From Desulfobacterales bacterium (GTDB lineage: Bacteria; Desulfobacterota; Desulfobacteria; Desulfobacterales; SURF-7), in the NCBI GenBank assembly GCA_046484745.1, contig JAWOIJ010000053.1, forward strand, positions 45,468-109,467: a stretch of DNA of 64,000 nucleotides, in the 5' to 3' direction. The position numbers and the translations under genes were made by a program. Shown here one piece after another: positions 39,541-62,536 of the stretch. Below the pieces are notes generated by a model, which was not told where the DNA came from, searched no databases, and was given only the letters and a program-made list of their open reading frames with translations. The first letter of the stretch is position 1. Each line of letters begins with the position of its first letter.

Positions 39541-40500
39541 TTACGGCTGCCGCCGGACAGATTTGAAAAAATCCCATATGATTTCGGCAGCATCGAAATT
39601 TTTGAGCGGGTCATTCCTGTTGAGTGTTGACGTATAATACTTCCCGGGCCAGTCATGCCCCCAGTTTTCGATAGCATAAAGAAGAACCGGGGATGATGTC
39701 TGACAATCCTTCCATTGCCAGAAATGAATGCGGTCTTTTAGAAGGTTTTTTTTCTCCGGCCGGGGAGTACAGCCATTGTTTCTGATCCAGAACTGAATCG
39801 ACTCTACCACGGATAGATAAACACGCGGCCCGCCCCGGTTCGGGCTTATTCCGCCGCCATAAGGAACTTCCCGGTCCGACAATCCATGAAATATGATCAT
39901 TGGAAGTGCCCTGACCGGATCGGGCGGCCGCCATTCCGGCACATCTTCGGATGCCTTTCCCCCGATGGAACCCGCAAGGGGAGCGGCTGCCGCCAGGAGA
40001 TCTCCTCGTTCCGCGGCAAATCGATAGGTAAACATTCCGCCGTTTGAAAAGCCTGCCATATAAACACGGTCGCGATCGATATTTAACCGGGTACAGGTTT
40101 CTTCAATGGCGGCAGCAACAAATCCGATGTCGTCGATGCCGTCGTCAGCCGCTTTTCCACAGCAGTGACCGGCATTCCAGTGCTGCAGAAAACCGAAAAG
40201 CCCGATACCGTTCGGATACATGACAACGAACCCTTCCCGATCCGCTACATCGCTGAAACCGGAAAATTTTTCCATTCCCTTTGCCGTATCAAAAGCGCCA
40301 TGAACAACAACCACCAGCGGCAAGGTGTTTTTCATGTCATAAGAAGGTGGAACATGAACCAGATAGGATCGTCGGAATCCTTCCGTCCAGTAATCCATGG
40401 TTCGCTCATATGTTTTTGATTCGGGAGGGATGTGCCCCTGCGGCAGCGTGGCCATGCATCCGGTTATCATGAAGATAATGATCAGGGAGATTGTTCTCAT
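39541..40500 (-). CDS. PHB-depolymerase-family esterase (LpqC/COG3509-like alpha/beta hydrolase)
   Basis: Lipoprotein-type signal (ITGC), PLVVVVHG, WNAGHCCG, nucleophile elbow GFSNGG and a late FHGLSD. Confidence 0.8.
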   Translation of the reverse strand: MRTISLIIIFMITGCMATLPQGHIPPESKTYERTMDYWTEGFRRSYLVHVPPSYDMKNTLPLVVVVHGAFDTAKGMEKFSGFSDVADREGFVVMYPNGIGLFGFLQHWNAGHCCGKAADDGIDDIGFVAAAIEETCTRLNIDRDRVYMAGFSNGGMFTYRFAAERGDLLAAAAPLAGSIGGKASEDVPEWRPPDPVRALPMIIFHGLSDREVPYGGGISPNRGGPRVYLSVVESIQFWIRNNGCTPRPEKKNLLKDRIHFWQWKDCQTSSPVLLYAIENWGHDWPGKYYTSTLNRNDPLKNFDAAEIIWDFFKSVRRQP

Positions 40501-40896: not shown

Positions 40897-41670
40897 ATGG
40901 AATATCGCTATCTGACGATTACACGTGAAAAGCATATTGCCACGGTTATGTTGAATCGTCCGGAAAAGTTGAATACGTTGAATGTTGACATGATGAATGA
41001 AATCATTCAAGTCGCCGATGAACTTCAACAGGATGAGCAGACCCGTGTTGTTATTTTCACGGGCGCAGGCAGGCATTTCAGTGGTGGCGTTGATTTGACC
41101 GACATCAGGCAGATAAAAGTGATGACCGAGGGTTCGCTGCTGATGAAAAGTCGTTATCTCAAGATCGGTCCGAAACTGATTCGCGCGGTTTACGAGATCA
41201 GTCAGATCACCATTGCCGCGTTGAACGGTGCGGCTCTCGGCGGCGGCGCATGTATTGCCGCTGCCTGTGATTTTCGAATCGGCGCTGAAGATTGCCGTGT
41301 TGGTTATCCTGAAGTAAACCTCGGAATGAATTTAAGCTGGGGAGCACTGCCCATGTGTGTAAACCTTATCGGACCATCCAGGGCCAAACGCATGGTCATT
41401 CTCGCCCAGCAGGAAAACGCCCGGACTCTTTTGGATTGGGGGTTTCTGGATGAGGTCGTGCCGGGCGACCAGTTGCTTTTCCGGGCAGTCGAAATGGCTG
41501 AAACCTACGCGGCCCAGCCACCTGTCGCGGCCCAGATGGTAAAACAAAGCGTAAATGCCCTCTCTTCATCACTGCAGCAGGCAATCATGCACATGGATAC
41601 GGATCAGTATCTGCTTGCCGCTCACAGTGAGGACTTTGCGGAAAGGATTCAGGCTTTTTTTAAAAAATAA
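40897..41670 (+). CDS. enoyl-CoA hydratase/isomerase (crotonase) family protein
   Basis: LNRPEKLNTL, FTGAGRHFSGGVDL, IAALNGAALGGGACIAAACDFRI. 257 aa. Confidence 0.9.
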   Translation: MEYRYLTITREKHIATVMLNRPEKLNTLNVDMMNEIIQVADELQQDEQTRVVIFTGAGRHFSGGVDLTDIRQIKVMTEGSLLMKSRYLKIGPKLIRAVYEISQITIAALNGAALGGGACIAAACDFRIGAEDCRVGYPEVNLGMNLSWGALPMCVNLIGPSRAKRMVILAQQENARTLLDWGFLDEVVPGDQLLFRAVEMAETYAAQPPVAAQMVKQSVNALSSSLQQAIMHMDTDQYLLAAHSEDFAERIQAFFKK

Positions 41671-41746
41671 GAGTCTTGCCGCGGTAAGAAGTGCAAGGCT
41701 CGCCGGACTGAACTGAAAAGAAATCGCGATAAAGGGAGAATTGATT

Positions 41747-42364
41747 ATGAAGGTTCTTTTTTCACTGGGAGTTGCCGATATCCGGGAAACGCTGACCGGA
41801 ATCAAGTCAATTATCAGGGTGCTGGGGTTGGTTGAAGGCGTGAAGACGATAAACCATGCTTCCATCAAACATTTTGCGGCAATCATGAAGGGAGAGGGGA
41901 GTCAATATCCTGAAAAAGGAAAAAGGCGTGTCTGGTTTAAGCTGCACTATCTGAAACATGTGTATGAATATTTAAAAAAGAGAGATGACGCAACAGCCGA
42001 CCAGAAGGTGGAAAAAATCATCAAGGCATCGACCTTGCAGTTCATCGGCCAGATGATCCCGGCATCGTATCTTTTCACAAAAGAATTTATGTTGAATGCT
42101 GTATGGCAGAATATGGTGGAGAAGGATTACAATATTGAAGGCAGCGTCATGCCTCCTGAAGGAAATTCCATATCGGTGAACGTACGAAGATGTTTTTATG
42201 ATGAACTGTCCAGAGAGGTGGGTTTGATGCCGATTGCGGACAAGATGTGCAACGGTGATTTTATATTCTGGGAAACCTATCATCCGAATGTCAGATTTTC
42301 ACGAACCAAAACGTTAATCGGCGGTGATGACCATTGCAACCATACGATCACATGGGTTGAATAG
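41747..42364 (+). CDS. ATC-hydrolase-like (L-2-amino-thiazoline-4-carboxylate hydrolase domain) protein
   Basis: The C-terminal CFYDELSREVGLMPIADKMCNGDFIFWETYHPNVRFSRTKTLIGGDDHCNH matches my recollection of PF14196. SD AGGGAGA precedes ATG 41747. Confidence 0.6.
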   Translation: MKVLFSLGVADIRETLTGIKSIIRVLGLVEGVKTINHASIKHFAAIMKGEGSQYPEKGKRRVWFKLHYLKHVYEYLKKRDDATADQKVEKIIKASTLQFIGQMIPASYLFTKEFMLNAVWQNMVEKDYNIEGSVMPPEGNSISVNVRRCFYDELSREVGLMPIADKMCNGDFIFWETYHPNVRFSRTKTLIGGDDHCNHTITWVE

Positions 42365-42399
42365 CCCGGTAACTTTTTGATACGAGGAGAGACGAAAAG

Positions 42400-44781
42400 A
42401 TGCTGTTTTCTGCCGCCAATCAAGGGCCTTTTGTGACACAGCGAATATCTGAACTGAAGAAAACGGTACAGGAATATCGACCGGGAATCTGCACGGAACG
42501 GGCTCTGATCTGGACCAGCTATTTTAAAAAAACTGAAAATCGAAAGAAGCCTGTTTGCATCCAGATTGCGGAAGCTTTTAGGGAGGTCCTTGCAAAGAAG
42601 ACCATTAAAATTTATCCGGGTGAGCTTATTGTCGGCAACTTCACGTCAAAACGAGTCGGTGGCGAGATACAGCCTGAACTTCTTGGAATGCTGGTCATGG
42701 AGGATATCTTTAAATTTCCGCGGAGGAAAACAAATCCCCTTCAGATATCCGGCCGGGAAACATGGCAGCTTCTTAAAATCATTCCTTTCTGGATGTTTCG
42801 TTTTCTTGCTATCCGGGTTCACAAATCTCCTCTTGTGACAATACGAAAAATGCTCAGCCAGTTGAAATCCTATTTTTATGTGATGAATGAAGTCGGCGGC
42901 ATTGCTCACACGGTTCCGGATCATGAAAAACTGATCCGGATTGGAACAGAGGGAATTGTCAAAGAGGTATCGGAGTATCAGAGTCGATGCAGGAAGAACT
43001 CTGAGCAGTGGCATTTTTATGAGGCGGTAAAAATCAGCGCCCATGCCTTTGCCATGTTTTGCGGACGATACCGGCAGACGGCCCTGAAGATGGCGGAAGT
43101 CGAGCAAAACCCGGATGAAAAAGAAAATTTGATGACAATTGCAGATGGTTTCGAAACAGCGCCCGAGAAAGGGGCCTCTACCTTCCGGGAGGCTATTCAG
43201 ACAGCCTACCTGGCCCATATCGCAGTCATGCTGGAAAGCCTGGATAATTCCATTGGAATAGGCAGGATGGATCAATATCTTTTTCCCTATTATGATCAGG
43301 ATGTAAAAAGAGGAGTGCTGAGCCGTGAGCAGGCAAAGGACCTGATTGCTGCCTTTTCAATTAAAATGTGTGAACTGGTTCCCGTGTTTTCAGAAAGAAT
43401 CATCAATTTTCACGGAGGATTTTACAATGCCCAGGTCGTTGCTGTCGGTGGTTTAGACCGGGAAGGTAATGACGCGACAAATGAACTCAGCTATATTTTC
43501 CTCGAGGTGATGAATGAGCTCAGAATGAGGGAACCCAATTATCATGCCCGCCTGCATTTGGGCTCACCCCCGGAATTTATGGACAAGATCATATCCAATC
43601 TCTGCTCGGGATCGAATACACCGGCGCTTTATAATGACGGGGTTATCATCGAAACGATGGTCAAAAACGGTTACAGCCTGGAAGATGCGAGAAACTACAG
43701 CACAGTCGGATGCGTTGAGGCGATTTCACCGGGAAAGAGTTTCGCCTCCACCAATGCGGCAATGGTGAATGTCCCGATTATTCTTGAGCTGGCGCTAAAC
43801 CAGGGAAGGCGGTTTCACTCCATTATCCGTCAAGGGGCAAGTACTCTTCCGGTATCGAAGATGAAAACGATGGATGATGTGAAAAAAGCCTTTGAATCGC
43901 AGCTATGTTTCCAGATCAATAACCTTATCGAGGATCTCCAGGCGCTTGAACGCGCGAATATGAAGTACCATCCGACCCCCTTCACAAGCATGCTTCATGA
44001 CGGATGCATCGCATCGGGCAAATGCACCACCCAGGGCGGAGCCATTTATAATTTTTCAGGCATCCAGGCGGTTTCACCCATTGCGGCAGGAGATGGGCTT
44101 TACGCAATTGAGAAGGCTGTATTCAAGGATCGCAGGATTTCCCTGCCGGATCTGGTTCGTTTATTAAAAAGAAATATTGATGATCCGGAGCGGCTGGCCT
44201 ACTTGAAAGGACTCAAAAAATTCGGCAATGACGAGGAAGAAGTGGACAGGTGGTCTCTTTATGTTGTTGACGCGTTCAGGAAGTCGTTGAGCGGCTATGT
44301 CAATACACGGGGAGGAAAATATATCATGGGGATATACTCTGATACGATTCATGAGTTTTTCGGACGTATTACAGGCGCTCTTCCCTATGGGAGAAAAAAG
44401 GGAGAGAGTTTTTCTTCCGGTATCGCCCCGGGAAACGGATTTGACATTAATGGCCCAACCGCACTTTTCAATTCAGTCAATCGGTTTGATTTTACAGCCA
44501 TCGCAAACGGAATAAACTTTAATTTCAAGCTCAGCCCTCATACGGTAAGCAGTGAAACAGGACGGGCAGCCCTGTCCGGTTTGCTCAAGACCTATTTTAA
44601 AAGAGGGGGGATGCAGGTACAGACCAATGTACTGGATCCCGAAGAGCTGATCCGGGCGCGAAATCATCCTGAACAGTATCCGAATCTGCTTGTCAGGGTT
44701 TCCGGATACTCGGTCTATTTTAATGATCTGACCCCGGTGATGAAGGAAGAAATTATACGAAGAAGCACGCTGTCCGTATAG
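42400..44781 (+). CDS. glycyl-radical enzyme, PFL2/eliminase-type (GRE-1)
   Basis: 793 aa. Cys loop STVGCVE (Cys438 codon 43711..43713, Glu440). C-terminal glycyl radical motif LLVRVSGYSVYFNDL (Gly769 codon 44704..44706). Confidence 0.92.
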   Translation: MLFSAANQGPFVTQRISELKKTVQEYRPGICTERALIWTSYFKKTENRKKPVCIQIAEAFREVLAKKTIKIYPGELIVGNFTSKRVGGEIQPELLGMLVMEDIFKFPRRKTNPLQISGRETWQLLKIIPFWMFRFLAIRVHKSPLVTIRKMLSQLKSYFYVMNEVGGIAHTVPDHEKLIRIGTEGIVKEVSEYQSRCRKNSEQWHFYEAVKISAHAFAMFCGRYRQTALKMAEVEQNPDEKENLMTIADGFETAPEKGASTFREAIQTAYLAHIAVMLESLDNSIGIGRMDQYLFPYYDQDVKRGVLSREQAKDLIAAFSIKMCELVPVFSERIINFHGGFYNAQVVAVGGLDREGNDATNELSYIFLEVMNELRMREPNYHARLHLGSPPEFMDKIISNLCSGSNTPALYNDGVIIETMVKNGYSLEDARNYSTVGCVEAISPGKSFASTNAAMVNVPIILELALNQGRRFHSIIRQGASTLPVSKMKTMDDVKKAFESQLCFQINNLIEDLQALERANMKYHPTPFTSMLHDGCIASGKCTTQGGAIYNFSGIQAVSPIAAGDGLYAIEKAVFKDRRISLPDLVRLLKRNIDDPERLAYLKGLKKFGNDEEEVDRWSLYVVDAFRKSLSGYVNTRGGKYIMGIYSDTIHEFFGRITGALPYGRKKGESFSSGIAPGNGFDINGPTALFNSVNRFDFTAIANGINFNFKLSPHTVSSETGRAALSGLLKTYFKRGGMQVQTNVLDPEELIRARNHPEQYPNLLVRVSGYSVYFNDLTPVMKEEIIRRSTLSV

Positions 44782-44864
44782 AGGAAAGACCTCCTTAACA
44801 CTTTGAGTTAATTGATATTTAAGGATTGAATGAGATGAAAAGGCCATTCAGGATCGAAAAAAGC

Positions 44865-44893
44865 TTGACTCGCTATATATACTTTATATATAT
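44865..44893 (+). promoter_or_regulatory. sigma70-like promoter embedded in a (TA)n-rich tract upstream of the PadR gene
   Basis: TTGACT, 17 nt, ATATAT, inside ctatatatactttatatatatatattgtatatataaa. Confidence 0.45.
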
Positions 44894-44954
44894 ATATTGT
44901 ATATATAAATTCCATCCGGCTGGATGAACTAAAATCTATCAAATACAGGATGAT

Positions 44955-45497
44955 ATGGCGATAAAATATTCAATATTGGGGTTGCTGCACTATACGGACA
45001 TGCACGGGTATCGAATCAAAGAGCATATTGAGCGCAATTTCGGCCATATGTGGTCGATCAACTTCGGCCAGATATACCCGAATCTGAAAAAAATGAAGGC
45101 GGAAGGCTTGATTTCAATGACGGAAGTCATTCAAAACGGTGAAAAGGGACCGCCTCGAAAACGATATTCCATAACCCAAAAAGGAAGAGCGGAATTTATC
45201 AAATGGCTTGAGAGTTCACCTGAAAAAACGATGATTCTCAGGGATCCCTTTCTGATGCGTTTTGTTTTTTATGGATTCGGGGATTACCGGAGGTCGCTTG
45301 AAATGATCGAGAAACAGATTTCTGTCTATGAGAATCAGCTGGCAAGAAGGAGAGAAAACCTAAAAAAATGGCGTAAAAGAGGCATCTATGTCGAACTGAT
45401 ATCTGAGCTTGGAACCGATATGAATGAAATGATTCTGGAGTGGTTGAAACAGGCTAAAACAAAAATAATAGATCATTATAAAGAGGAAGTGAAATGA
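44955..45497 (+). CDS. PadR-family transcriptional regulator
   Basis: ILGLLHYTDMHGYRIKEHIERNFGHMWSINFGQIYPNLKKMKAEGLI wHTH plus a C-terminal helical domain. 180 aa. Confidence 0.88.
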   Translation: MAIKYSILGLLHYTDMHGYRIKEHIERNFGHMWSINFGQIYPNLKKMKAEGLISMTEVIQNGEKGPPRKRYSITQKGRAEFIKWLESSPEKTMILRDPFLMRFVFYGFGDYRRSLEMIEKQISVYENQLARRRENLKKWRKRGIYVELISELGTDMNEMILEWLKQAKTKIIDHYKEEVK

Positions 45498-46480
45498 ACT
45501 TCACTGGGATTTCCCTTGTAACCGGCGCCGGCGGTTTTATGGGCAGCCATGTTGTTGAACATCTCGCGGGAAAAGGCATCAAGGTAAGAGCGACGTCAAG
45601 GCCCAGAAAGGACCTGTCCTTTTTTGACAGACTTGGCGTAGAGTATGTTGCTGCGGATCTTACACGGCCGGAAACCCTTTCGCGACTTTTTGAAGGTGAC
45701 GTGGATCGCGTTTTTCATCTTGGCGCGATCTGTAATTTTTCCACCCCTTTTGAAAAACTCTATCCCACCAATGTCAAGGGGGTGGATAGCCTGACCGATC
45801 TTGCTCTTCAGCATGGTGTAAAAAGATTTATTCATGTCACCTCAACCAGTGTATATGGATATTATAAAGGAACACCTTTCAGGGAAACCGACAAGCCGGA
45901 TCCCATGGATGACTACGCGCGAAGTAAAAAGGAAGGCGAGGAGGTTGTTTTTAAAAAGCTCGCACAGGGGCTTCCGGCGGTTATTGTCCGTCCTCCTACT
46001 GTCTATGGCCCAAGATGTAATGACGGCGCGGGAAAAGTATTTTCAAGACCTTCGAAAATCAGCGCCTTTCCCGGAAGTGGAAAACAGCTTCTCGCAAATG
46101 TCAGAGCCGAAGATGTCGCCGCCGCACTGGAACATCTTTCCTGCCTGGATGATGCGGTGGGAGAGATTTATAATATCGCAGACGATACCAATCCGACACT
46201 TGAGGAAGCCTTGACACTTTCCGCGAAGACTTATACCACAACAGCCCCGAAACTGCACCTGCCGCTTTCCATTGTAAAATTTTCAACGATTCTGGATGGA
46301 TTTTTTTCCCGGCTGAGAGGTAAAATACCGGAGTTGGAATATGATGCGGTAAAGTATCTGTACTTTGATTATGTGGTTGATAATACGAAACTGAAAAATA
46401 CCGGTTTCGCCCTGCGATATCCGGATTTCAGGGAATCCATGGCGCAGCTGGGGAGGCGGTTCCAGCAAAGCCATGCGTAA
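45494..46480 (+). CDS. NAD-dependent epimerase/dehydratase (extended SDR) family protein
   Basis: VTGAGGFMGSHVVEHL, YARSKKEGE (YxxxK). ATGA overlap with padR. Confidence 0.85.
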   Translation: MNFTGISLVTGAGGFMGSHVVEHLAGKGIKVRATSRPRKDLSFFDRLGVEYVAADLTRPETLSRLFEGDVDRVFHLGAICNFSTPFEKLYPTNVKGVDSLTDLALQHGVKRFIHVTSTSVYGYYKGTPFRETDKPDPMDDYARSKKEGEEVVFKKLAQGLPAVIVRPPTVYGPRCNDGAGKVFSRPSKISAFPGSGKQLLANVRAEDVAAALEHLSCLDDAVGEIYNIADDTNPTLEEALTLSAKTYTTTAPKLHLPLSIVKFSTILDGFFSRLRGKIPELEYDAVKYLYFDYVVDNTKLKNTGFALRYPDFRESMAQLGRRFQQSHA

Positions 46481-46540
46481 AAGGTTCGTCATCGTGAAAC
46501 AGGAAGTCGTTACAGAAATGCATCGCGAACAGGAGGTCAT

Positions 46541-47371
46541 ATGAGTCAGATTGTTGTAATTACCGGCCTGGCCCAGGGAATGGGAAAAGAAATTGCCGAA
46601 ATGCTGGCGCGTTCCGGAGATAAAATTGCAGGTTTTGACGTTGATCCGGATGGGATCGCCAGCCTGAAGAAAACGCTTGATGGGATTGGCTGTGATAATC
46701 ACCTGGATGTCATTGATATTACCGACAGAGAAAAAATTCTGAAATTCCGCGACCAGGTACTCGAAAAATTCGGGAAGGTGGATACGGTGGTATCCAATGT
46801 CGGGATCGGCTTTTTCGGTCCTTTCGAAGAGATCGATCTGGAGAAAGCCTTGAAGTGTTTTGAAATCAACGTAATCGGAGCGTCCGCAATATTTCAGGCA
46901 TTTATTCCTTCCATGCGGAAGGCAGGCCGCGGTAAACTGATTGCCATGTCTTCGCTGGTAGGCCGGATACCCTTTCCCTTTGAATCCATTTATACGGCTA
47001 CCAAGTTTGCCATAGAAGGACTTGTCGAATCAATCAAGTATGAAGTAGAGCCTTTTGGAATCCGTACGGCTCTGATAGAGCCGGCACAGGTTTCTACCGA
47101 CTTTGCTGCAAAAATTCATGTGCTTCCTCCCGAAGGATCTCCATACCGCGAACGCGCAAAACGGTTTATCGACCGTGACAATGAACTGATCAAAACGGCA
47201 ACCACTCCTGTTGCTGCCGCAAAAAGAATCGTAAAAGTGATTCGGTCCGAAAAACCGAAACTTCATAACCAGGTTGATTTCATGAGTACTTTTTTTCTGT
47301 TTTTGAACTGGATATTGCCGAAAAAGATCAGGGATGTCATCCTGGTCAATCATATGGATATCAAGGTTTGA
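46541..47371 (+). CDS. SDR-family oxidoreductase
   Basis: ITGLAQGMGKEIA, SNVGIG, YTATKFAIEG (YxxxK). 276 aa. Confidence 0.85.
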   Translation: MSQIVVITGLAQGMGKEIAEMLARSGDKIAGFDVDPDGIASLKKTLDGIGCDNHLDVIDITDREKILKFRDQVLEKFGKVDTVVSNVGIGFFGPFEEIDLEKALKCFEINVIGASAIFQAFIPSMRKAGRGKLIAMSSLVGRIPFPFESIYTATKFAIEGLVESIKYEVEPFGIRTALIEPAQVSTDFAAKIHVLPPEGSPYRERAKRFIDRDNELIKTATTPVAAAKRIVKVIRSEKPKLHNQVDFMSTFFLFLNWILPKKIRDVILVNHMDIKV

Positions 47372-47425
47372 AATGATTTTGTTATGGGTCTGTCAGAAAA
47401 ATAATTTTAAACGCAAGGAGCCGTT

Positions 47426-49807: not shown

Positions 49808-49827
49808 TGGATAAAGGAAAAAATTGA

Positions 49828-50763
49828 ATGGAAAAGGTGATGACAATCAAAGAGGCGGTTTCCAGGTTTGTTCGATCAGGAGATTTCCTGTATATCGGCG
49901 GATATATCTGCAGACCTCCTTTCTCGGCGATTCATGAAATTATCAGGCAGGGGCTCAAGGATCTGACCATAACCCGATGCAATGCCGCTGATGATTTTGA
50001 CATGCTGATCGGCGCGGGCGCTGTAAAGCGTTTTATCGGGACATTTCTTTCCCTTGGGGTATATGGGCTTGGCCGCTGCTACAGGCGATCAATTGAAAAG
50101 GGAATTCCGCATAAGGTTGAAGTGGAAGAATACTCCAACCTGTCGCTTCCGATGATGCTTTTTGCAGGATCGATGGGGATGCCTTTTGTTCCGGTTAAAG
50201 ATATGGTGGGGACCGACCTTTTAAATGTCAGATCATTTATGGGGGACAACAAATACAAAATGATCGATTCTCCGTTTGATGGAAGCCCGACACTTCTGGT
50301 CCCGGCGCTGCACCCTGATGTCGCGATCATTCATGTACAGCAGGCTGACAAGTACGGCAATGCGCAGATATGGGGTATTGCCGGTGACTGTCAGGCAGGA
50401 GCCAATGCTGCCGAAAAGGTCATTGTTTCCTGTGAACGGATCGTTGACCGGGAGATAATCGGGAAAGACCCTTCGCGCACGATCGTTCCTTCTTTCAAGG
50501 TGGTGGCGGTTGTGGAAGAACCGTTTGGAGCTCATCCCGGGTATACTCCCGGATTTTATGATGTGGATTTTTCATACGGTTATCTGTATCAGCAGGCCTC
50601 CAATACGGTTGACGGGTTTAATGATTTTTTAAAAGAATGGGTATATGACATAGAAGACCGGAATGCATACATACAGCATTTCATTGAACGCTTCGGGTAT
50701 GAGGTATTCAGCAAGCTTCAGGCGGATTTTGATTACAGCTATCCGGTTAGCTATGCCTATTAA
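49828..50763 (+). CDS. CoA-transferase subunit A (family I, glutaconate-CoA-transferase-like)
   Basis: MTIKEAVSRFVRSGDFLYIGGY and ALHPDVAIIHVQQADKYGNAQIWG are typical of the alpha subunit. Confidence 0.82.
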   Translation: MEKVMTIKEAVSRFVRSGDFLYIGGYICRPPFSAIHEIIRQGLKDLTITRCNAADDFDMLIGAGAVKRFIGTFLSLGVYGLGRCYRRSIEKGIPHKVEVEEYSNLSLPMMLFAGSMGMPFVPVKDMVGTDLLNVRSFMGDNKYKMIDSPFDGSPTLLVPALHPDVAIIHVQQADKYGNAQIWGIAGDCQAGANAAEKVIVSCERIVDREIIGKDPSRTIVPSFKVVAVVEEPFGAHPGYTPGFYDVDFSYGYLYQQASNTVDGFNDFLKEWVYDIEDRNAYIQHFIERFGYEVFSKLQADFDYSYPVSYAY

Positions 50764-50805
50764 AGATAATTAAAAACTTTTTAAAGCTTCTTGCGGAGTG
50801 GAAAC

Positions 50806-51606
50806 ATGACAAACAGTTTGAAGGAATATATCAAACCGGAGTTGATGGCGTGCTGCGGGGCAAGGGAAATCAAAGACAATGATATTGTTATCGTGGGCAC
50901 CGGCTTTCCGACCATGTCCGCCAATATCGCCAAGCAGACACACGCACCGAATGTAATATTGATGCAGGAATCCGGCGTGATCGATGCCCGGCCCAAACGG
51001 CCGGCGCTGTCAGTCGGAGATCCCTGTCTTAACCCGGGCGCGGCAATGGTGGGAGGGCTTCTGGAAATTATGGGAATGTGCCTTCAGGCCGGATGGGTTG
51101 ACGTAGGTTTTCTGTCCGGAAGCCAGGTAGACAAGTTCGGAAATATCAACACCACGGTAATTGGTGATTATCACAAACCCAAAAGCCGTCTGCCCGGAAG
51201 CGGAGGTGCGAATCCAATCGGATCCCTGGTGAAAAGGACATTGATCATTGCGTTGCATGACAAAAGACGGCTGGCGGGAAAAGTCGATTTTATTACGACA
51301 CCCGGCTATATTGACGGGCCCGATGCAAGACGGAAATGGGGACTTCCGCCGGAGACCGGTCCGGAATGTATTATTACGAATAAAGCGGTATTGAGGTTTG
51401 ATTCGGAGAGCCGGGAGGCTTATCTGGCTTCTTTTCATCCCGGATCTTCGGTAGAGGAAATCCTTGAAAACACCCCCTGGGACCTCAAGGTCGCGGAAGA
51501 TGTTCATGAAACAGAACCGCCCACGGTTGAAGAGCTGAAAGCGATTCGGGAGGTGCTGGATCCCCACAGAATGATCAGTATGTATGAAAAGCGCGGATAT
51601 GTATAG
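50806..51606 (+). CDS. CoA-transferase subunit B (family I)
   Basis: VGTGFPT, candidate catalytic Glu in LMQESGVID, DKFGNINTTVIG, PGSGGANPI. SD GGAGTGG precedes ATG 50806; the track TTG 50791 is upstream. Confidence 0.82.
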   Translation: MTNSLKEYIKPELMACCGAREIKDNDIVIVGTGFPTMSANIAKQTHAPNVILMQESGVIDARPKRPALSVGDPCLNPGAAMVGGLLEIMGMCLQAGWVDVGFLSGSQVDKFGNINTTVIGDYHKPKSRLPGSGGANPIGSLVKRTLIIALHDKRRLAGKVDFITTPGYIDGPDARRKWGLPPETGPECIITNKAVLRFDSESREAYLASFHPGSSVEEILENTPWDLKVAEDVHETEPPTVEELKAIREVLDPHRMISMYEKRGYV

Positions 51607-51708
51607 AACCAGTTCCATCAATGATTTTTAAAATCCGTTTCGGTTATACTGTCTAAATTTTGTCCGGCATTAAACGGGATGGATATTTGACCTGTAATGG
51701 AGGAATCA

Positions 51709-53076
51709 ATGGATCATACCAGAAAGCTGGCTGATTTTTGTTCAGACCTGTCACTTAAGGAACTCCCCCCGGAAGTCATTCACATGGCAAAACGATGCGT
51801 GCTGGATTATATCGCCAACATTTACGGTTCACTTCAACTCGATGCGGTACAGCGGGTGATCTCATACATCAAGACGATTCAAAAAAACGGGGATACAACC
51901 GTTCTGGGCTGTGATTTTAAAACCAGCATACATCTGGCCGCTTTTATTAACGGTACCACCGCAGAGGCCATAGAAGCGCAGGATGGCGTCCGTTTTGGAG
52001 GCAACCATCCCTGTGCGGCCGTCATCCCGGCAGCTTTTGCCGTGGCGGAACAAAGAAATTCAGGCGGCGGCAGATTCATAGAAGCGGTGGTTGCCGGATA
52101 TGAGGCGGCCAACAGACCGGCTGCCGCCATGCATCCCTGGCATACACTTTCAGGGTTTCTGCCAACAGGGACTTGTGGCACATTCGGAGCGGCAGCAGCA
52201 GCAGCCAAACTCAGCGATTTTACCGCAGACCAGATGTTGAATGCCATTGCAAACGCGGGCTATATTCTTCCCATTTCCATGGCGGAACATTTAATGGGAG
52301 GATATACCATAAAAATCGTTCAGGGCGGACAGGCGGCCGGTGCCGGAATTATGGCTTCCGGTCTTGCCGGAGCTGGTCTTACCGGCACCCCCTTTGTTCT
52401 TGAAGGCTCCGAACTGAACGGAGGGTTCACCAAGATCACCACGCAGGTAGCGCCGAAATTTAATCTGATCTCCGATGACCTGGGAAAGAAATATTCCATC
52501 ATGGATGTCTATTTCAAACCCTATACAGCCTGCCGGCATACCCATGGTGCAGCCCAGGCAGCCCTTGAACTGGCAAGGGAAAATAAAATTGGACCGGAAG
52601 ATGTTAAAACCGTTGAAGTACATACATACGGAATCGCGGAACTGGCTGTTGGAAAAGGCGTAGCGGAAAATGATACTTTTGTATCCGCCCAGTTCTCTAT
52701 TCCCTATGTTGTTGCCGTGTGCCTGTCAGATGGCGAACTCGGTCCGAAACAGCTTACGGAAAAGAGACTGGCGGATTCCAACCTGATCGAGCTTTCCAGA
52801 AAGATTCGTGTAACAACAGACGAAAAACTGAACCAGGCATATCCGGATAAAACCAGCAGCCGGATTGAAGTCTGCTTGAAAAATGGAGAAATCCTGAAAA
52901 AGCAGATTGATATTCCAAAAGGAGATCCGCGGGATCCAATGGATGTGGATGACATTGCCGCAAAGATTAAAAATTTTGCAGACCAACGCGATCCTCAGAA
53001 GCTCGATGAACTGATCGGGATGATCCTCGAGCTTGAAAAGGTGGACAGTGTTCGAAGAATTATAGAAATGATTTAA
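51709..53076 (+). CDS. MmgE/PrpD-family protein (2-methylcitrate-dehydratase superfamily)
   Basis: LADFCSDLSLKELPPEVIHMAKRCVLDYIAN and FKPYTACRHTHGAAQAAL are characteristic of the family. Confidence 0.85.
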   Translation: MDHTRKLADFCSDLSLKELPPEVIHMAKRCVLDYIANIYGSLQLDAVQRVISYIKTIQKNGDTTVLGCDFKTSIHLAAFINGTTAEAIEAQDGVRFGGNHPCAAVIPAAFAVAEQRNSGGGRFIEAVVAGYEAANRPAAAMHPWHTLSGFLPTGTCGTFGAAAAAAKLSDFTADQMLNAIANAGYILPISMAEHLMGGYTIKIVQGGQAAGAGIMASGLAGAGLTGTPFVLEGSELNGGFTKITTQVAPKFNLISDDLGKKYSIMDVYFKPYTACRHTHGAAQAALELARENKIGPEDVKTVEVHTYGIAELAVGKGVAENDTFVSAQFSIPYVVAVCLSDGELGPKQLTEKRLADSNLIELSRKIRVTTDEKLNQAYPDKTSSRIEVCLKNGEILKKQIDIPKGDPRDPMDVDDIAAKIKNFADQRDPQKLDELIGMILELEKVDSVRRIIEMI

Positions 53077-53142
53077 TGCAGGCTCTGGTCTGAATTTTTG
53101 CCGGAACCCTGTAGAAGGATCGACAATATACAAGGAGGACAA

Positions 53143-54303
53143 ATGGACTTTAGTTTGAACAAAGAACAGACCATGTTGATACAGTCTCTTCAGGATATGG
53201 GAAAAAGAGAAAAGTTCACGGAACTTGCCGCGGAAACAGACAGAACAGGGGAATTCCCTCATTATTTAATGCAAAAGTATGCGGAGATGGGGCTGATCGG
53301 CATGTCTCTTTCCCCGGAGTACGGAGGAGAAGGCGAACCTTCACTCACGGCCATTCTGGCTATTGAAGCACTGGCAAAATACAGTCCCATGATTGCCGCA
53401 CCTGTTTTCGAGTCCAATGTCGGTCCGGTCAGGGTGATTGACATGTTCGGCACTGATGAACAGAAAAAGCGTATTATTCCCGGTGTCTGTAAAGGAGAGT
53501 TCAGCGTATCGGTCTGCATGACGGAGCCGGAGGCAGGTTCGGACCTGACGTCTCTTTCCACGATACTTGAAAAAAAGGATGGCCATTATGTTCTAAATGG
53601 CCGGAAATCCTTTATCACAGGTGGCGGTATGGCCAGTCATTATCTGGTTTATACCCGATTTGGTGATGTAAAGGGATATAAGGGCATCGGTGCGGTTATT
53701 GTCGAAAAGGGAACGCCCGGCTTCAGCTTCGGGAAACAGGAAGAGTTCATGGGGCTCCGCGGGATGCCTTCATGTGATCTTTTTTTTGACGACGTTGCTG
53801 TTCCGGAGGAAAATATCGTCATCCGCCAGGGTGATTTCGGCAACCTCATGCTGACTTTTGATATCGAGCGATGCGGGAATGCCGCGATGTGCCTTGGAAT
53901 CGCCGGCGGCGCTCTCGATTTTGCCAGGGCCTATGCTCTGGAGAGAAAAGCGTTTGGCCGTCCGATCTGCGAATTTCAGGATATTCAGTTTATGATCGCG
54001 GACATGGCCATGAAACTCGATGCGGCCCGTCTTCTTGTATATCGCGCTGCAAACGGGGCGGGCCAGGGGCTGCCGTCAATCTATGAAGCTTCCATGGGAA
54101 AATGTTTTGCCAATGAGATGGTGCGGGAGGTTACGGATAAGGCCATGCAGATACTGGGAGGCTACGGATACAGCAAAGAATTTCCCGTTGAACGGATGCT
54201 CCGGGACAGCCGGGCATGGGGCGTGGCCGGGGGAACCCTTCAGATGCTGAAGGTGACCATGGCCAGTATTGTTTTCGGCAGGCGCTTTGACCAGAGAAAA
54301 TAG
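53143..54303 (+). CDS. acyl-CoA dehydrogenase
   Basis: MTEPEAGSDL, KSFITGG and the catalytic-base context GGYGYSKEFPVERMLRDSR. SD AGGAGG precedes ATG 53143. Confidence 0.9.
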   Translation: MDFSLNKEQTMLIQSLQDMGKREKFTELAAETDRTGEFPHYLMQKYAEMGLIGMSLSPEYGGEGEPSLTAILAIEALAKYSPMIAAPVFESNVGPVRVIDMFGTDEQKKRIIPGVCKGEFSVSVCMTEPEAGSDLTSLSTILEKKDGHYVLNGRKSFITGGGMASHYLVYTRFGDVKGYKGIGAVIVEKGTPGFSFGKQEEFMGLRGMPSCDLFFDDVAVPEENIVIRQGDFGNLMLTFDIERCGNAAMCLGIAGGALDFARAYALERKAFGRPICEFQDIQFMIADMAMKLDAARLLVYRAANGAGQGLPSIYEASMGKCFANEMVREVTDKAMQILGGYGYSKEFPVERMLRDSRAWGVAGGTLQMLKVTMASIVFGRRFDQRK

Positions 54304-54399
54304 GCTGCCGGCTGGAAAACAACGATTTCAATTCATGAATGTGACGTCGATAAGCAATCGACTTGACATTGAGAACCATTTCACCTCAGGGAGGGATTT

Positions 54400-54840
54400 A
54401 TGAGCGAGTATTATCGTGATGCAGATCATCTTTTGGAGATATACGATTATTTTTTATCCAATGTGCTTCAGGACAAGAAGATCGGGCCGAAAATGGCGAA
54501 ATCGAACATCATTATCAAGTTTATATACACCGATCCGGATTGTGAAATCACAATTGATTTTAAAAATCCGCCGGAAAAAGAAGGCTACTTCGGCAACTTT
54601 TATCTGGGACCGACTCCTCTTAAAGAAGATGTATGGTCCAAACAGAGCGCGGATCACTCGCATCGATTCTGGCATGGTTTTGAAAATCCGATCGCGGCGG
54701 TTACGAGAGGGAAGGTAAGGCAGGGCGGAAAGATAACGGCCATGCTGAAACTGCTGCCTGTTGTCAAGCCCACCTTTAAAAGGTTCCCGGAGATTCTGAA
54801 GGAAATGGGTTACGAAAATCTGATCGTTCATAAAAAATAA
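54400..54840 (+). CDS. SCP2 (sterol-carrier-protein-2-like) lipid-binding domain protein
   Basis: IIIKFIYTDPDCEITIDF...AVTRGKVRQGGKITAMLKLLPV resembles the SCP2 fold pattern. 146 aa. Confidence 0.55.
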   Translation: MSEYYRDADHLLEIYDYFLSNVLQDKKIGPKMAKSNIIIKFIYTDPDCEITIDFKNPPEKEGYFGNFYLGPTPLKEDVWSKQSADHSHRFWHGFENPIAAVTRGKVRQGGKITAMLKLLPVVKPTFKRFPEILKEMGYENLIVHKK

Positions 54841-54886
54841 AAAAGACCTGGCTTATCAATCAAAATGTTGTCTGCAGGAGTCAATT

Positions 54887-56755
54887 ATGAAAGGCAATAC
54901 AGGGAAAATCATCGAGATTGATCTCAGCACTGAAAAGTTTAACATAACGGATCTGCCTGAAGCGTACTACAAAAAATATATCGGGGGAAGCGGTCTTGCC
55001 GCTAAATATTTCTGGGGAAAGGCTGATTTTAATGCGGAGCCATTGTCCGAAGGCGCCATGCTTCTGTTCATGAACGGGCCTTTTGCCGGCCTTAAACTAT
55101 CCGGGGCAAGCAGAAACTGTGTGGCAGGACGATCTCCTCTTACCGGAAATTGGGGAGATTCCTCCTGTGGCGGATATTTTGCTCCTGAGCTTCGATATGC
55201 CGGGTATGATGGTATCGCCATAACCGGCAAAGCAAAATCACCCGTTATTATTGATATCCACGGAAAAACAATTCAGCTGCTGGATGCCGCCAAGTATTGG
55301 GGCAGGGGAATCGAAGATACCAACAATGGCCTGAAAGCGGAATTCGGGAAGGATTGCCGAACGCTGGTTATCGGACCTTCCGGAGAAAACGGTGTCCGGT
55401 ATTCCTGTATCATCGGCGAGGGGCATCACACCTTTGGAAGAGCCGGCTATGGAGCGGTGATGGGCTCGAAAAATCTGAAGGCGATCACGGTAAAGGCTGA
55501 ACAGAGAAAAATGGATCTCGCCGACCCGGAGAAATATCAGGCGCTGCGAAAGGAGATCAATGAAGGGATTCGCAATTCGATGACTGCAGAAGTACTTCAT
55601 GAACTCGGAACGTCCGCCAAACTGGAAGTCGGTGTCTATGATGGTGATGTCCCCATCAGGAACTGGACATCAAACTACTGGGAGGAGATGGCTGAAGCCT
55701 TGACCGGAAGCACCCTTGCCGAAAAATATCTCACCCGAAGGGGATCCTGCGCTTTCTGCAGTATCGCCTGCAAGCGGATTGTGGAAGTAAAGGAGGGGCC
55801 GTTTCATATTCCCGAAGGTCCCGGACCTGAGTATGAGACCATTGTCTCTTTTGGCGCGCTCCTGGGATCAATGGATCTGGCGGCTGTGTGCAAAGCCGGA
55901 CGCGTATGCAATGACCTGGGATTGGACACCATATCCGCCGGCGGAACCATCGCGTGGGCAATGGAAGCCTTTGAAAAAGGGGATCTGACGGTTGAAGATA
56001 CCGATGGTGTGACGATTGCCTGGGGTGATATGAAAACAGTTATTGATGTTCTTCTGCCGGGTATTGCCGCTAAAAAAGGAAAACTCGGCGCCCTTCTCGC
56101 TGACGGGAGTGTCGCGGCAGCTAAAAAAATCGGAAAAGATTCGATTCGATACACGGCCCATTCAAAAGGCCTCGAAGCTCCGATGCATGACCCGAGAGGC
56201 GGGGGGCACGGAATGGCTCTTACTTACGCTGTCAGTCCCAGAGGCGGTTGCCATGTTTCAAGCCCGATGCTTTCGATAGAGGCCGGCGCCCGTTACTATC
56301 CGGAGATTGATTTTGAATATGATCTGGAGCCCATGACAGACGAAAACAAACCAGAGGCTGCCGTTACCGCCATCGAACTCGGAAGCATTGAAAACAGTGC
56401 CTGCTATTGCGAGTTCGCAGACCGGGAGATAACCATGCCCCAGTGGGTTGGCCTGTTTAACACCGTCGCGGGATATCCATGGGATATCAAAGAAATGATG
56501 CGGTCCGGCAGGAGAGTTTTTTATCTGAAGCGCATGATTAACTACCTGTATGGCCGCCGGGCGGCTGATGATGACCTGACGCCCAGAATGCTGTCAAAGG
56601 CAGTTGATGGAGAGCCCGAAGGAATCGAAATCAATTTCAGCGGGATGAAAAACAAGTTCTATCAGCTCACCAGACTTGATCCTGAAAAAGGAATCCCCGT
56701 CAAAGAATGTCTCCGGGAATACGATATGGAGCAGGAAGCTGAAAGGGTGTGGTGA
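54887..56755 (+). CDS. aldehyde:ferredoxin oxidoreductase (tungstopterin AOR family), AOR-1
   Basis: N-terminal YIGGSGLAAKYFW, GRSPLTG, [4Fe-4S] ligands in GSCAFCSIAC, the DTISAG pterin-binding segment and C-terminal AFOR_C. Confidence 0.9.
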   Translation: MKGNTGKIIEIDLSTEKFNITDLPEAYYKKYIGGSGLAAKYFWGKADFNAEPLSEGAMLLFMNGPFAGLKLSGASRNCVAGRSPLTGNWGDSSCGGYFAPELRYAGYDGIAITGKAKSPVIIDIHGKTIQLLDAAKYWGRGIEDTNNGLKAEFGKDCRTLVIGPSGENGVRYSCIIGEGHHTFGRAGYGAVMGSKNLKAITVKAEQRKMDLADPEKYQALRKEINEGIRNSMTAEVLHELGTSAKLEVGVYDGDVPIRNWTSNYWEEMAEALTGSTLAEKYLTRRGSCAFCSIACKRIVEVKEGPFHIPEGPGPEYETIVSFGALLGSMDLAAVCKAGRVCNDLGLDTISAGGTIAWAMEAFEKGDLTVEDTDGVTIAWGDMKTVIDVLLPGIAAKKGKLGALLADGSVAAAKKIGKDSIRYTAHSKGLEAPMHDPRGGGHGMALTYAVSPRGGCHVSSPMLSIEAGARYYPEIDFEYDLEPMTDENKPEAAVTAIELGSIENSACYCEFADREITMPQWVGLFNTVAGYPWDIKEMMRSGRRVFYLKRMINYLYGRRAADDDLTPRMLSKAVDGEPEGIEINFSGMKNKFYQLTRLDPEKGIPVKECLREYDMEQEAERVW

Positions 56756-57802: not shown

Positions 57803-57843
57803 TCTGATATCCTTTCATGACGACCGGTGTTCTGGTTTAACGA

Positions 57844-58671: not shown

Positions 58672-58996
58672 ATTTATTTCTCCTGATTAAGCAATTGAGT
58701 ATTGGAGTAAACCAGCACCAGCACGACGGATGGCTATAATTGGGAGAAAACCATACATTAGAATTGAAATAGATTGTGAAAACTTTAACGCAGCTATCAA
58801 TAAGTTGTCAAATGAAAAAAGAATGGCAAACCGTCCGGGATCGTTTCTCCTGCCATTAACAATGCCGACTATGGTATCGTTAATTCCATACAGGTTGTGA
58901 CAACTTCTGAAATTGACGCATTTCTCATTACGGAAGTGATAAGAATGAATCACCTGATAAAAAATCCGCGAATTGCCGATATCGTATACTTGATTT

Positions 58997-59224: not shown

Positions 59225-59284
59225 GCCGAGTACCTCATTTTTATTGCCACCGGATTGGTTTATTGCCCATGGTCGCCTTCATCA

Positions 59285-61279: not shown

Positions 61280-61290
61280 ATCCTCTCCTT

Positions 61291-62478: not shown

Positions 62479-62536
62479 AATTGGCTCCTATGGTATGAGG
62501 TTATTTTTGATGGTTTCACAAAAAGTCCATTTTCGG

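Follow-up and report, generated by a model that had tools for sequence, protein, structure and literature searches.

How could two glycyl radical enzymes (GREs) work in a gene cluster that holds no activase gene, and what would they work on? The question is raised by a stretch of 64,000 nucleotides from Desulfobacterales bacterium (assembly GCA_046484745.1, contig JAWOIJ010000053.1, positions 45,468 to 109,467 of the forward strand), called the window here, in which GRE1 (42400-44781, plus strand) and GRE2 (47426-49807, plus strand) lie among genes of coenzyme A (CoA) ester metabolism. GREs carry out difficult bond cleavages of anaerobic metabolism, and whole clades of them are still without an assigned function (2026 review). 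Here, we argue that the operon around GRE2 is best read as a new and widespread variant of the GRE eliminase pathway, one that is consistently without an activase in cis; the chemistry that we attach to it is a proposal.

The GRE2 operon and the missing activase

Both genes encode full-length proteins of 793 residues with the marks of the superfamily, much as a first-pass annotation, made without database searches, had claimed. The Pfam domains agree, with PFL-like (PF02901) matched at E 1e-157 and Gly_radical (PF01228) at E 8e-30 in GRE1, and at E 2e-191 and E 2e-26, respectively, in GRE2. Residue numbering was checked in a 242-sequence alignment, in which the Cys, Glu and Gly assignments held: GRE1 has Cys438 and Glu440 (Cys loop VGC438-V-E440), His170 and Gly769 (Gly loop RVSG769YSVYF), and GRE2 has Cys440 and Glu442 (VGC440-L-E442), His168 and Gly769 (RISG769YSGIF). 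The superfamily fingerprint of Gly and catalytic Cys is invariant in the 119-120 homologues of each clade, and the Cys-x-Glu motif is present and invariant as well. The two proteins are only 35% identical to each other, so that their equal length is a coincidence, and each is about equally far from any characterised GRE. They had been called paralogous, which holds in the distant sense but not in the sense of a close pair; both are real, intact GREs, and they belong to separate uncharacterised clades.

Orthologous loci were found by comparing each of 173 fetched loci (labelled L001 and so on) with the window proteins. The GRE2 locus has 32 orthologous loci, 22 of them non-redundant, and 140 other (PFL2-like) GRE loci were used beside them in the activase counts. 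Homologues of GRE2 fall into hundreds of sequence clusters (67-93% identity), most of them recovered from metagenome bins of Desulfobacterota. Among species-representative genomes, orthologues are 64-98% identical and the next relatives at most 39%, a fall in identity that sets GRE2 apart as a discrete clade. The conserved gene order runs from a PadR regulator through an extended short-chain dehydrogenase/reductase (SDR), a classical SDR, GRE2, CoA-transferase A and B, a PrpD-like protein and an acyl-CoA dehydrogenase-fold protein (ACAD) to an SCP2-fold protein. This operon was found in about 20 independent Desulfobacterota lineages, among them Desulfobacterales, a Desulfosudis oleivorans metagenome-assembled genome (MAG), Ca. 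Desulfacyla, Syntrophales and Zymogenaceae. In the 22 non-redundant loci padR holds this position in 16, and the genes found include the extended SDR and the classical SDR in 19 each, and the SCP2-fold gene, which always follows ACAD or GRE2, in 13.

Some steps are served by different genes in different lineages. The aldehyde:ferredoxin oxidoreductase (AOR) gene, last of the operon in the window lineage, has an orthologue at the same place in L001, L007, L021, L095 and L097, and an aldehyde dehydrogenase (ALDH) gene stands instead of it or besides it in L007, L014 and L015; one or the other usually comes after the conserved genes. Desulfacyla-type loci (L016, L018, L097) are without the CoA-transferase and the PrpD-like gene and carry, between the SCP2-fold gene and AOR, an AMP-forming ligase that reaches the cut-off of the long-chain-fatty-acid-CoA-ligase model PRK06187. 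The PrpD-like gene is present or absent together with the CoA-transferase, which points to a function coupled to that of the transferase and not to a reaction that all variants require. A TRAP transporter system ends the operon in one lineage (L004-L006). Across the orthologous loci no thiolase is conserved in the operon and a crotonase is not always present, and among those compared no extra conserved operon open reading frame (ORF) of at least 90 codons was found. The ALDH subtype was also tried as a clue to the substrate; the best matches are betaine-/aminobutyraldehyde-dehydrogenase-like, all under cut-off, and uninformative.

The first gene of the operon, padR (44955-45497, plus strand), matches Pfam PadR (E 8e-19) and Vir_act_alpha_C, and its stop overlaps the next start. 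Upstream of it, at 44862-44912 on the plus strand, lies a promoter-like TTGACT together with an AT-rich palindromic operator candidate (palindromes TATATACTTTATATATA / TATATATTGTATATATA). Four overlapping matches to the 17-mer TATATACTTTNTATATA lie there, where 0.03 would be expected over the window. Of the 173 fetched loci, 12 carry an exact copy; each of these is GRE2-orthologous, the 140 other GRE loci have none, and variants of the motif can be seen in additional lineages. The exact copy is placed upstream of padR, or of a symporter gene preceding padR; since it lies upstream of a GltS-family symporter gene of this kind in L023 and L096, a GltS-type symporter would belong to the regulon. 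We infer that PadR binds the operator candidate, and we read the region 44862-56755, with its own candidate promoter and operator, as a self-contained, PadR-controlled catabolic unit. A promoter consensus scan over the cluster gave the same counts as shuffles, and a terminator scan gave a modest excess (31 versus 18.9 ± 3.9 in shuffles); neither was of help in defining transcription units.

Just upstream of padR, two groups of loci carry further genes. L021 has a glycerophosphodiester phosphodiesterase and an ADP-forming acyl-CoA synthetase (4008-7310), and L004/L005 have a corrinoid methyltransferase pair with B12-binding and URO-D-like domains (4567-7168). These genes may be hints of substrate supply, or they may be unrelated neighbours.

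Where is the activase? The first-pass annotation had found none in the window, and a six-frame motif scan and domain scans agree. The motif C-x3-C-x2-C has a single match in six frames of the 64 kb, in no plausible gene: it falls in a Cys-rich 101-codon frame (23421-23723) that overlaps a GNAT acetyltransferase ORF (23254-23871) and that we judged to be a chance frame. Radical_SAM and Fer4_12 domains were absent from the roughly 50 window ORFs scanned. An activase just beyond the window was conceivable, and it is here that the orthologous loci come in. With the canonical L093 activase as BLAST probe and the CxxxCxxC motif as second criterion, an activase was called nearby in only 1 of the 32 GRE2-orthologous loci, as against 104 of the 140 other GRE loci. 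When loci of at least 12 kb are considered, the counts are 1 of 24 and 69 of 87 (Fisher p ~1e-11). In the sole exception, L013, the activase follows another GRE, of 839 residues, just upstream of padR. The absence of a cis activase is thus a property of the clade and not an effect of the window's end.

The L013 locus (Desulfobacteraceae MAG SURF_7) deserves a brief description. In its region 35-7349, the padR-GRE2 operon is directly preceded by the 839-residue GRE, a third kind beside GRE1 and GRE2, and by the activase of that GRE, along with an SDR and a gene for the D component of 2-hydroxyglutaryl-CoA dehydratase. These genes take the place that GRE1 and its two companion genes (described below) occupy in the window.

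How, then, would GRE2 obtain its radical? The simplest reading is activation in trans by an activase encoded at another GRE locus, because an activase is found in the same sample as one orthologous operon, Gly loops overlap and cross-activation is known. In L093, the canonical activase adjoins a GRE1-like gene, and the contigs of L093 and L013 (the latter of MAG SURF_7) were recovered from one and the same metagenome sample. The Gly loop RVSGYSA recurs in some members of the GRE2 clade, in the majority of the GRE1 family and in the activase-adjacent P0193. Activase specificity is tied to the Gly loop, and cross-activation between similar loops occurs and has been little studied (2026 review). 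Beside its activase-bearing GRE1-like gene, L093 (14527-18536) also encodes a TetR regulator, a 253-residue protein with a faint SCP2 match, an aminotransferase and a split transketolase; the 253-residue protein is another SCP2-like gene recurring beside a GRE of the same group.

In the GRE1 family, the presence of an adjacent activase varies. The GRE1 subclade proper (Asn452/Asp648, 66-97% identical) is without a cis activase in each of three independent contexts, namely the window lineage, L010 and L091, whereas four of five loci of the sister subclade (Asp452/Val648, 57-63% identical) carry one immediately upstream. This two-state swap of acidic pocket residues, with Asp452/Val648 in 82 sequence clusters and Asn452/Asp648 in 37, coincides in the loci examined with the presence or absence of an adjacent activase. 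Three neighbours were considered as disguised activases and rejected: the 207-residue and 307-residue neighbours in L010 are a membrane protein and a Nudix-like protein, and a 279-residue Fer4 protein in L091 is without an N-terminal CxxxCxxC.

If no activase stands beside them, might the GREs instead be relics, or enzymes that are never activated, in a cluster assembled by chance juxtaposition? The missing activase, both in the 64-kb window and within 10 kb in orthologous loci, is what such an account would predict. It is difficult, however, to reconcile with full-length ORFs whose catalytic residues are invariant over 120 sequence clusters at 67-93% identity, with a gene order and candidate operator conserved across Desulfobacterota orders, or with the presence of activases elsewhere in related metagenome bins. 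We give this account almost no credence.

The GRE2 clade is abundant, its hundreds of sequence clusters coming from marine, hypersaline and subsurface Desulfobacterota. It offers a fixed operon, a recognisable operator, alternative genes per step and an invariant, unusual pocket, and it is a natural test of how many GREs one activase serves. Were its substrate identified, sulfate-reducing sediments would gain a further route of carbon degradation.

Class membership and pocket residues

To which class of GRE do the two proteins belong? Neither reaches the cut-off of any NCBIfam equivalog among HpfG, HpsG, HypD, CutC, PflD/PRK09983, IAD, HPAD and PflB, the scores being about half the cut-offs; HpfG is the top equivalog for both (571 bits for GRE2 and 458 bits for GRE1, cut-off 1000). 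The model TIGR01774, with a cut-off of 678, is passed by GRE2 (694 bits) and not by GRE1 (600 bits). Both proteins are far from pyruvate formate-lyase (TIGR01255, 135-139 bits against a cut-off of 994), and the adjacent Cys-Cys of that enzyme is missing, a Gly preceding the single Cys in GRE1 and GRE2. Among structures in the PDB, GRE2 is closest to the glycerol dehydratase of C. butyricum (568 bits, 39% identity) and then to propanediol dehydratase (533 bits), followed by the unannotated structure 9rco, A. fulgidus PFL2 and PflD (456 bits); scores are lower for YbiW (402 bits), CutC (about 371-438), HplG (370) and HpsG/IslA (328-343). GRE1 has A. fulgidus PFL2 (2f3o) as its best match, at 458 bits, and is 33% identical to glycerol dehydratase.

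A June 2026 review lists as characterised eliminases and isomerases glycerol dehydratase (GD), propanediol dehydratase (PD), HpfG, HypD, HpyG, HpzG, CutC, IseG/IslA, HpsG, HplG, YbiW and PflD (PMC13450708). GRE2 belongs to none of these. The review contains no cluster similar to that of GRE2, in agreement with the earlier remark that no characterised GRE pathway has this gene combination, and a search of the literature on GREs with this cluster's partner genes or in Desulfobacterota found no description of it.

In glycerol dehydratase, His164 protonates the C2 hydroxyl and Glu435 deprotonates the C1 hydroxyl (PMC13450708). His168 of GRE2 and His170 of GRE1 align with this His164 and are invariant. 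In the alignment of the GRE2 clade, the Gly, Cys440, Glu442, His168 and 25 further residues of the pocket segments are the same in 120 of 120 members, and Ser285, which corresponds to glycerol dehydratase Ser282, is likewise kept in every one. Changes relative to glycerol dehydratase are just as fixed: H281N, Y339T, W445S, H446T, D447F and Y640F are all invariant in the clade. We take His281, Tyr339, Asp447 and Tyr640 of glycerol dehydratase to be contacts to glycerol or to its far end; these positions are occupied by Asn284, Thr347, Phe454 and Phe650 in GRE2 and by Asn283, Ala344, Asn452 and Tyr646 in GRE1. GRE2 has further invariant residues near the pocket (Phe169, Phe450, Trp646, Phe654 and His655) and a five-residue insertion relative to glycerol dehydratase with invariant Glu340, Glu343 and Lys345.

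This residue pattern fits an eliminase that would apply the same catalytic apparatus to another, partly non-polar substrate, and the substrate is presumably not glycerol because the pocket differs from that of glycerol dehydratase. The first-pass annotation had treated the Cys-x-Glu loop as the hallmark of eliminases. The motif is real, but it is no proof by itself, since GRE decarboxylases and a newer class of isomerases retain Cys-x-Glu too (June 2026 review).

One particular substrate was considered and down-weighted. The C-S-cleaving sulfonate GREs (IslA/IseG/HpsG) hold the sulfonate by two Arg and one Gln (PMC13450708), and the corresponding positions in GRE2, mapped by numbering offset via glycerol dehydratase only, are Tyr164, His168 and Phe650-Gly653. 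The idea that the operon handles 2,3-dihydroxypropane-1-sulfonate (DHPS) or 3-sulfopropionate had come from HpfG and a desulfinase as top matches. It lost weight because GRE2 seems to be without the Arg/Gln anchor and because the ACAD keeps a likely catalytic Glu.

If the best solved relatives of GRE2 are the glycerol and propanediol dehydratases, could it simply be a divergent member of that group? The operon would then serve an ordinary C3 route, in which a diol is converted to propionaldehyde or 3-hydroxypropionaldehyde, the aldehyde to the acid, and the acid to propionyl-CoA or 3-hydroxypropionyl-CoA, with interconversion of acryloyl-CoA and propionyl-CoA. The nearest NCBIfam models of the ACAD do include an acryloyl-CoA reductase, Gct-type transferases accept propionate and acrylate, and propanediol dehydratase is itself less polar (Phe) at the Tyr339 position. 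However, GRE2 is only 39% identical to glycerol dehydratase, and Asp447, His281 and Tyr640, kept in both diol enzymes, are invariantly replaced in it. Typical diol-dehydratase loci have microcompartment shell genes and a nearby activase, neither of which is present here, and such a route would have no need for two SDRs, an SCP2-fold protein, a PrpD-like protein or anion transporters. We consider a plain C3 route rather improbable.

A proposed pathway and its rivals

What do the other operon genes add? In the window they all lie on the plus strand, and Pfam bears out the families that had been named for the neighbours of the two GREs (crotonase, ATC_hydrolase, PadR, the SDRs, two CoA_trans proteins, MmgE/PrpD, ACAD and AOR). 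The extended SDR (45494-46480, 328 residues) matches Epimerase (E 4e-33), NAD_binding_4 (E 1e-21) and 3Beta_HSD (E 5e-18); its best NCBIfam match, HpnA at 110 bits, is far under cut-off, and no close PDB relative was found. The classical SDR (46541-47371, 276 residues; adh_short, E 2e-42) is nearest to the NCBIfam subfamilies PRK06179, PRK06182 and ketodihydrosphingosine reductase, all under cut-off, and its best PDB match is human 17-beta-hydroxysteroid dehydrogenase 1 (17-beta-HSD1, E 4e-28).

Downstream of GRE2 come the two subunits of a family I CoA-transferase. The alpha subunit (49828-50763) is of the GctA type (Pfam CoA_trans; PDB 1poi GctA, E 5.5e-58) and is 76-98% identical among orthologous loci. 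The beta subunit (50791-51606; CoA_trans, E 2.5e-33), which adjoins alpha in those loci, has a QESG motif that we take to be the catalytic Glu site of Gct-type enzymes. The PrpD-like protein (51697-53076) carries both MmgE_PrpD_N and MmgE_PrpD_C and is not a PrpD orthologue, scoring 32-54 bits against PrpD equivalogs with cut-offs of 458-950; its nearest solved relatives are iminodisuccinate epimerase and IRG1/cis-aconitate decarboxylase (E 1e-28 to 1e-15).

The ACAD (53098-54303) has the N, M and C domains of its family and probably starts at Met16 (53143), since its orthologues are 386-388 residues long. Its best NCBIfam matches, 3-sulfinopropanoyl-CoA desulfinase (349 bits) and acryloyl-CoA reductase AcrC (339 bits), are both under cut-off. 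The Glu of the canonical YEGT is replaced (AGGT) and a Glu is found in FDIER, both features being kept in the orthologues (about 20 loci); the FDIER Glu may be the base, the arrangement of isovaleryl-CoA dehydrogenase. The ACAD may thus not be a plain dehydrogenase. The AOR (54887-56755), of the W/Mo pterin type, matches AFOR_N (E 7e-68) and AFOR_C (E 3e-102).

Between these two genes lies one for a protein of 146 residues (54400-54840) that has no Pfam match even at E 10 and no NCBIfam or PDB sequence match; it has 392 homologues, every one labelled 'hypothetical'. Its AlphaFold model (pLDDT 93, pTM 0.87) gave 38 Foldseek matches at E ≤0.001, mostly SCP2 domains, the best being 1ikt (E 5e-7), and including SCP2-like C-terminal domains of alkylsulfatases and UbiJ-SCP2, with target-normalised TM up to 0.77. 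The earlier assignment to SCP2 is thus upheld by the predicted structure though not by sequence models, and the protein appears to have an SCP2 fold while belonging to no described sequence family.

We propose that the GRE2 operon encodes a trans-activated 1,2-eliminase whose aldehyde product is oxidised, activated with CoA and dehydrogenated, a reading to which we assign a probability of about 0.5. GRE2 would be a functional GRE whose glycyl radical, with no cis activase observed, would be installed in trans. As the conserved residues suggest, the thiyl radical of Cys440 would take a hydrogen from a hydroxyl-bearing carbon, Glu442 would deprotonate that hydroxyl, and His168 would donate a proton to a group leaving from the adjacent carbon, the mechanism of the glycerol and propanediol dehydratases, to give an aldehyde. 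The substrate would bind in a pocket lined by the invariant Phe, Trp, Thr and Asn residues, in an enzyme whose short insertion carries the invariant Glu340, Glu343 and Lys345; we would expect it to be of the 1,2-diol type, in part non-polar and perhaps with an anionic group. The two SDRs could set the redox state of an alcohol or ketone, or its stereochemistry. The AOR, or ALDH in other lineages, would oxidise the aldehyde, the Gct-type CoA-transferase, or an AMP-forming ligase in one lineage, would activate the acid, and the ACAD would dehydrogenate the acyl-CoA. The SCP2-fold protein may hold a hydrophobic ligand, and the PrpD-like protein may work alongside the CoA-transferase.

The order of the last three steps is suggested by the replacement of AOR by ALDH, and of transferase by ligase, between lineages, and these swaps are the strongest evidence for it. 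An outline in which the elimination product is oxidised, activated with CoA and processed in the style of beta-oxidation had already been put forward in the first-pass annotation, and it gains from the finding that AOR/ALDH, transferase/ligase and ACAD travel with GRE2.

Several points weigh against this proposal. Every catalytic step is drawn from homology and gene order, and Cys-x-Glu, as noted, occurs in GRE isomerases and decarboxylases too. Asp447, kept in the aligned propanediol dehydratase and 9rco sequences, is Phe in GRE2, so the chemistry may differ from simple dehydration. To carry the route beyond the ACAD, a thiolase is not conserved and a crotonase is not always present, and the proposal gives the PrpD-like and SCP2-fold proteins no firm role. 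Finally, the clues to the substrate conflict. The SCP2 fold, the steroid-type SDRs (one of them 17-beta-HSD-like), the fatty-acid-type ligase, the aromatic pocket and PadR hint at a hydrophobic ligand, whereas the GltS symporter (L023, L096), the TRAP system (L004-L006), the Gct-type transferase and the short-chain-like ACAD hint at a small anion.

An amphipathic hydroxy compound, or a 3-substituted propane-1,2-diol, would reconcile these clues, although this is conjecture. In a more specific version, the operon would be a route for 3-substituted propane-1,2-diols, X-CH2-CHOH-CH2OH, in which X is hydrophobic or ether-linked (for example, a glyceryl ether from ether lipids), and one activase at another GRE locus would be shared by the GRE2 clade and the GRE1 subclade. 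GRE2 would dehydrate the diol to 3-X-propanal, AOR/ALDH and the CoA-transferase or ligase would convert this to 3-X-propionyl-CoA, and the unusual ACAD would oxidise or eliminate at the alpha/beta position, perhaps with help from the PrpD-like protein or a crotonase, so that X is released. If this were true, sulfate reducers could break otherwise inert C-O (or C-S, C-N) bonds. So detailed a scheme is a long shot.

The eliminase proposal has four rivals, which we list in order of weight: a lyase or isomerase, the divergent glycerol/propanediol dehydratase considered above, a fumarate-adding enzyme, and the relic. The first of these keeps the Cys-x-Glu enzyme and changes what is expelled. GRE2 would be a lyase or isomerase that abstracts a hydrogen next to a hydroxyl and then expels an alkoxide, amine or thiolate, cleaving an ether, C-N or C-S bond in the manner of YbiW/PflD, HplG, CutC or HpsG. 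A freed fragment such as a lipophilic alcohol would then pass through the SDRs to an aldehyde and through AOR/ALDH to an acid, to be CoA-activated and dehydrogenated. Such a scheme explains why two alcohol dehydrogenase-type genes always stand ahead of GRE2, and these SDRs do resemble dehydrogenases of lipophilic alcohols (17-beta-HSD1; the NAD_binding_4 or thioester-reductase type). The SCP2 fold, the fatty-acid-type ligase of one lineage and the aromatic pocket point the same way, isomerases are known to keep Cys-x-Glu, and ring-ether cleavage by a GRE is established (June 2026 review). On the other hand, PflD, YbiW, HplG, CutC and HpsG/IslA all match GRE2 with lower scores than the glycerol and propanediol dehydratases do, the GRE2 clade invariantly keeps the His that acts in glycerol dehydratase as proton donor to the leaving hydroxyl, and anion transporters in the regulon are a poor fit to a neutral lipid ether. 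We regard a lyase or isomerase as unlikely, while giving it more weight than any other rival.

Could GRE2, GRE1 or both be non-canonical fumarate-adding enzymes, similar to X-succinate synthases? The CoA-transferase, ACAD, crotonase and SDRs would then form a bbs-like beta-oxidation module, and the PrpD-like protein would act on a substituted succinate, for example as an epimerase. The gene set is indeed like bbs in having a CoA-transferase, an ACAD, a hydratase and an SDR pair, substituted succinates are what the MmgE/PrpD relatives iminodisuccinate epimerase and cis-aconitate decarboxylase work on, and the SCP2 fold and hydrophobic pocket suit a hydrophobic co-substrate. In addition, the best solved relative of GRE1, A. 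fulgidus PFL2/PflD, has been debated as a dehydratase or an alkylsuccinate synthase. The scores argue otherwise: GRE2 matches the alpha subunit of benzylsuccinate synthase (BSS-alpha) at 267 bits and MasD at 252 bits, compared with 568 bits for glycerol dehydratase, and GRE1 matches the former two at 150 and 193 bits. Moreover, the dehydratase His and Glu are kept in both GREs, and what we take to be the position of the fumarate-binding Arg of BSS is Phe in GRE2 and Asn in GRE1. Such a pathway would also leave the conserved AOR/ALDH without a role, and the operon has neither conserved small-subunit genes (among ORFs of at least 90 codons) nor a thiolase. Fumarate addition is, in our judgement, very unlikely. 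A paper on limonene met in the literature concerns a classical succinate synthase.

Neighbouring modules and known systems

If GRE2 belongs to its own operon, what is GRE1 doing next to it? GRE1 is preceded by genes for a crotonase-family enoyl-CoA hydratase/isomerase (ECH; 40897-41670, plus strand; ECH_1, E 1.7e-48, with no NCBIfam equivalog reached) and, immediately upstream, a 207-residue ATC_hydrolase-family protein (ATCh; 41741-42364, plus strand; PF14196, E 1.1e-13, with no NCBIfam match). An ECH gene ahead of GRE1 is limited to the closest relatives (L001, L009, L012, L022), and the ECH genes downstream of the operon in L019 and L021 are unrelated to it. The ATCh gene is restricted to the lineage of the window. 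It is missing in L010 and L091, where GRE1 relatives of 73-74% identity lie in unrelated contexts, one of them directly following an acyl-CoA ligase gene. ECH-ATCh-GRE1 (40897-44781) is therefore a separate, lineage-specific unit outside the GRE2 operon, and nothing but adjacency in the window lineage ties GRE1 to GRE2. The suggestion that the two GREs act on related substrates or successive intermediates finds no backing, as the GRE2 operon is kept in about 20 lineages without GRE1. A functional pair is equally hard to maintain when the ECH-ATCh-GRE1 unit is confined to the closest relatives and precedes the candidate promoter and operator of the GRE2 operon.

On the other side, a second alcohol/aldehyde module (57233-63791, minus strand) faces the operon. 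It encodes a TetR regulator (63225-63791), a 210-residue protein with a borderline SCP2 match (62537-63169; Pfam E 0.013, BLASTP E 0.03), an Fe-alcohol dehydrogenase (61291-62478), a second AOR (59285-61279), a 189-residue protein and a PstS/PBP_like_2 binding protein (57844-58671) that might bind an oxyanion such as tungstate or molybdate. Divergent to ECH lies an esterase gene (39541-40500, minus strand) that matches the NCBIfam model for the extracellular short-chain-length polyhydroxyalkanoate (PHA) depolymerase type-1 catalytic domain (166 bits, cut-off 150); outside the closest relatives (L001, L009 and L022) it is not conserved at this place. Elsewhere the window is ordinary chromosome, with rpsA, sppA, guaB, dnaE and genes for a tail-specific protease and an efflux pump, among others. 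Upstream of the cluster and with no apparent link to it, 25565-29900 and 33678-35201 hold a complete MacAB/TolC-type efflux set (OEP, HlyD, ABC ATPase and FtsX permease) and a bacterial dynamin-like GTPase. No Rfam families or tRNAs were found in searches across the window. The cluster had been called an island, for which base composition gives no support, as there is no break at the cluster within the window.

How do these genes compare with known systems? GRE2 shares its fold over the full length with C. butyricum DhaB1 glycerol dehydratase (1r8w/1r9d) and R. inulinivorans propanediol dehydratase (5i2a), and also the Gly loop, the Cys-x-Glu loop, the His and Ser282. It differs from them in its pocket changes and insertion and in having neither an adjacent activase nor microcompartment genes, and its operon differs from their loci in the two SDRs, the Gct-type CoA-transferase, the PrpD-like protein, the ACAD, the SCP2-fold protein and the AOR. 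The pathway logic of HpfG, the DHPS dehydratase, is the one proposed for GRE2, with a 3-substituted propane-1,2-diol converted to an aldehyde that is then oxidised or reduced; the HpfG scores of GRE2 and GRE1 are, as given above, far under the cut-off.

For GRE1, the nearest known system is A. fulgidus PFL2/PflD (AF1449, 2f3o), which presumably has its activase next door. It resembles GRE1 in its single Cys, its Cys-x-Glu and a His at the His164 position, the match being remote, and it has Asp at the Asp447 position where GRE1 has Asn452 together with Asp648. AF1449 is functionally unassigned, and whether it is a dehydratase or an alkylsuccinate synthase has been debated (2026 review). The bbs and DmdBCD modules, finally, are like the GRE2 operon in placing a CoA-transferase or ligase and an ACAD, followed by a crotonase and SDRs, after an unusual first step. 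The bbs CoA-transferase is of family III. The GRE2 operon differs from bbs in its family I, Gct-type transferase, in the probably relocated base of its ACAD and in having no thiolase, and the likeness is drawn from the gene set.

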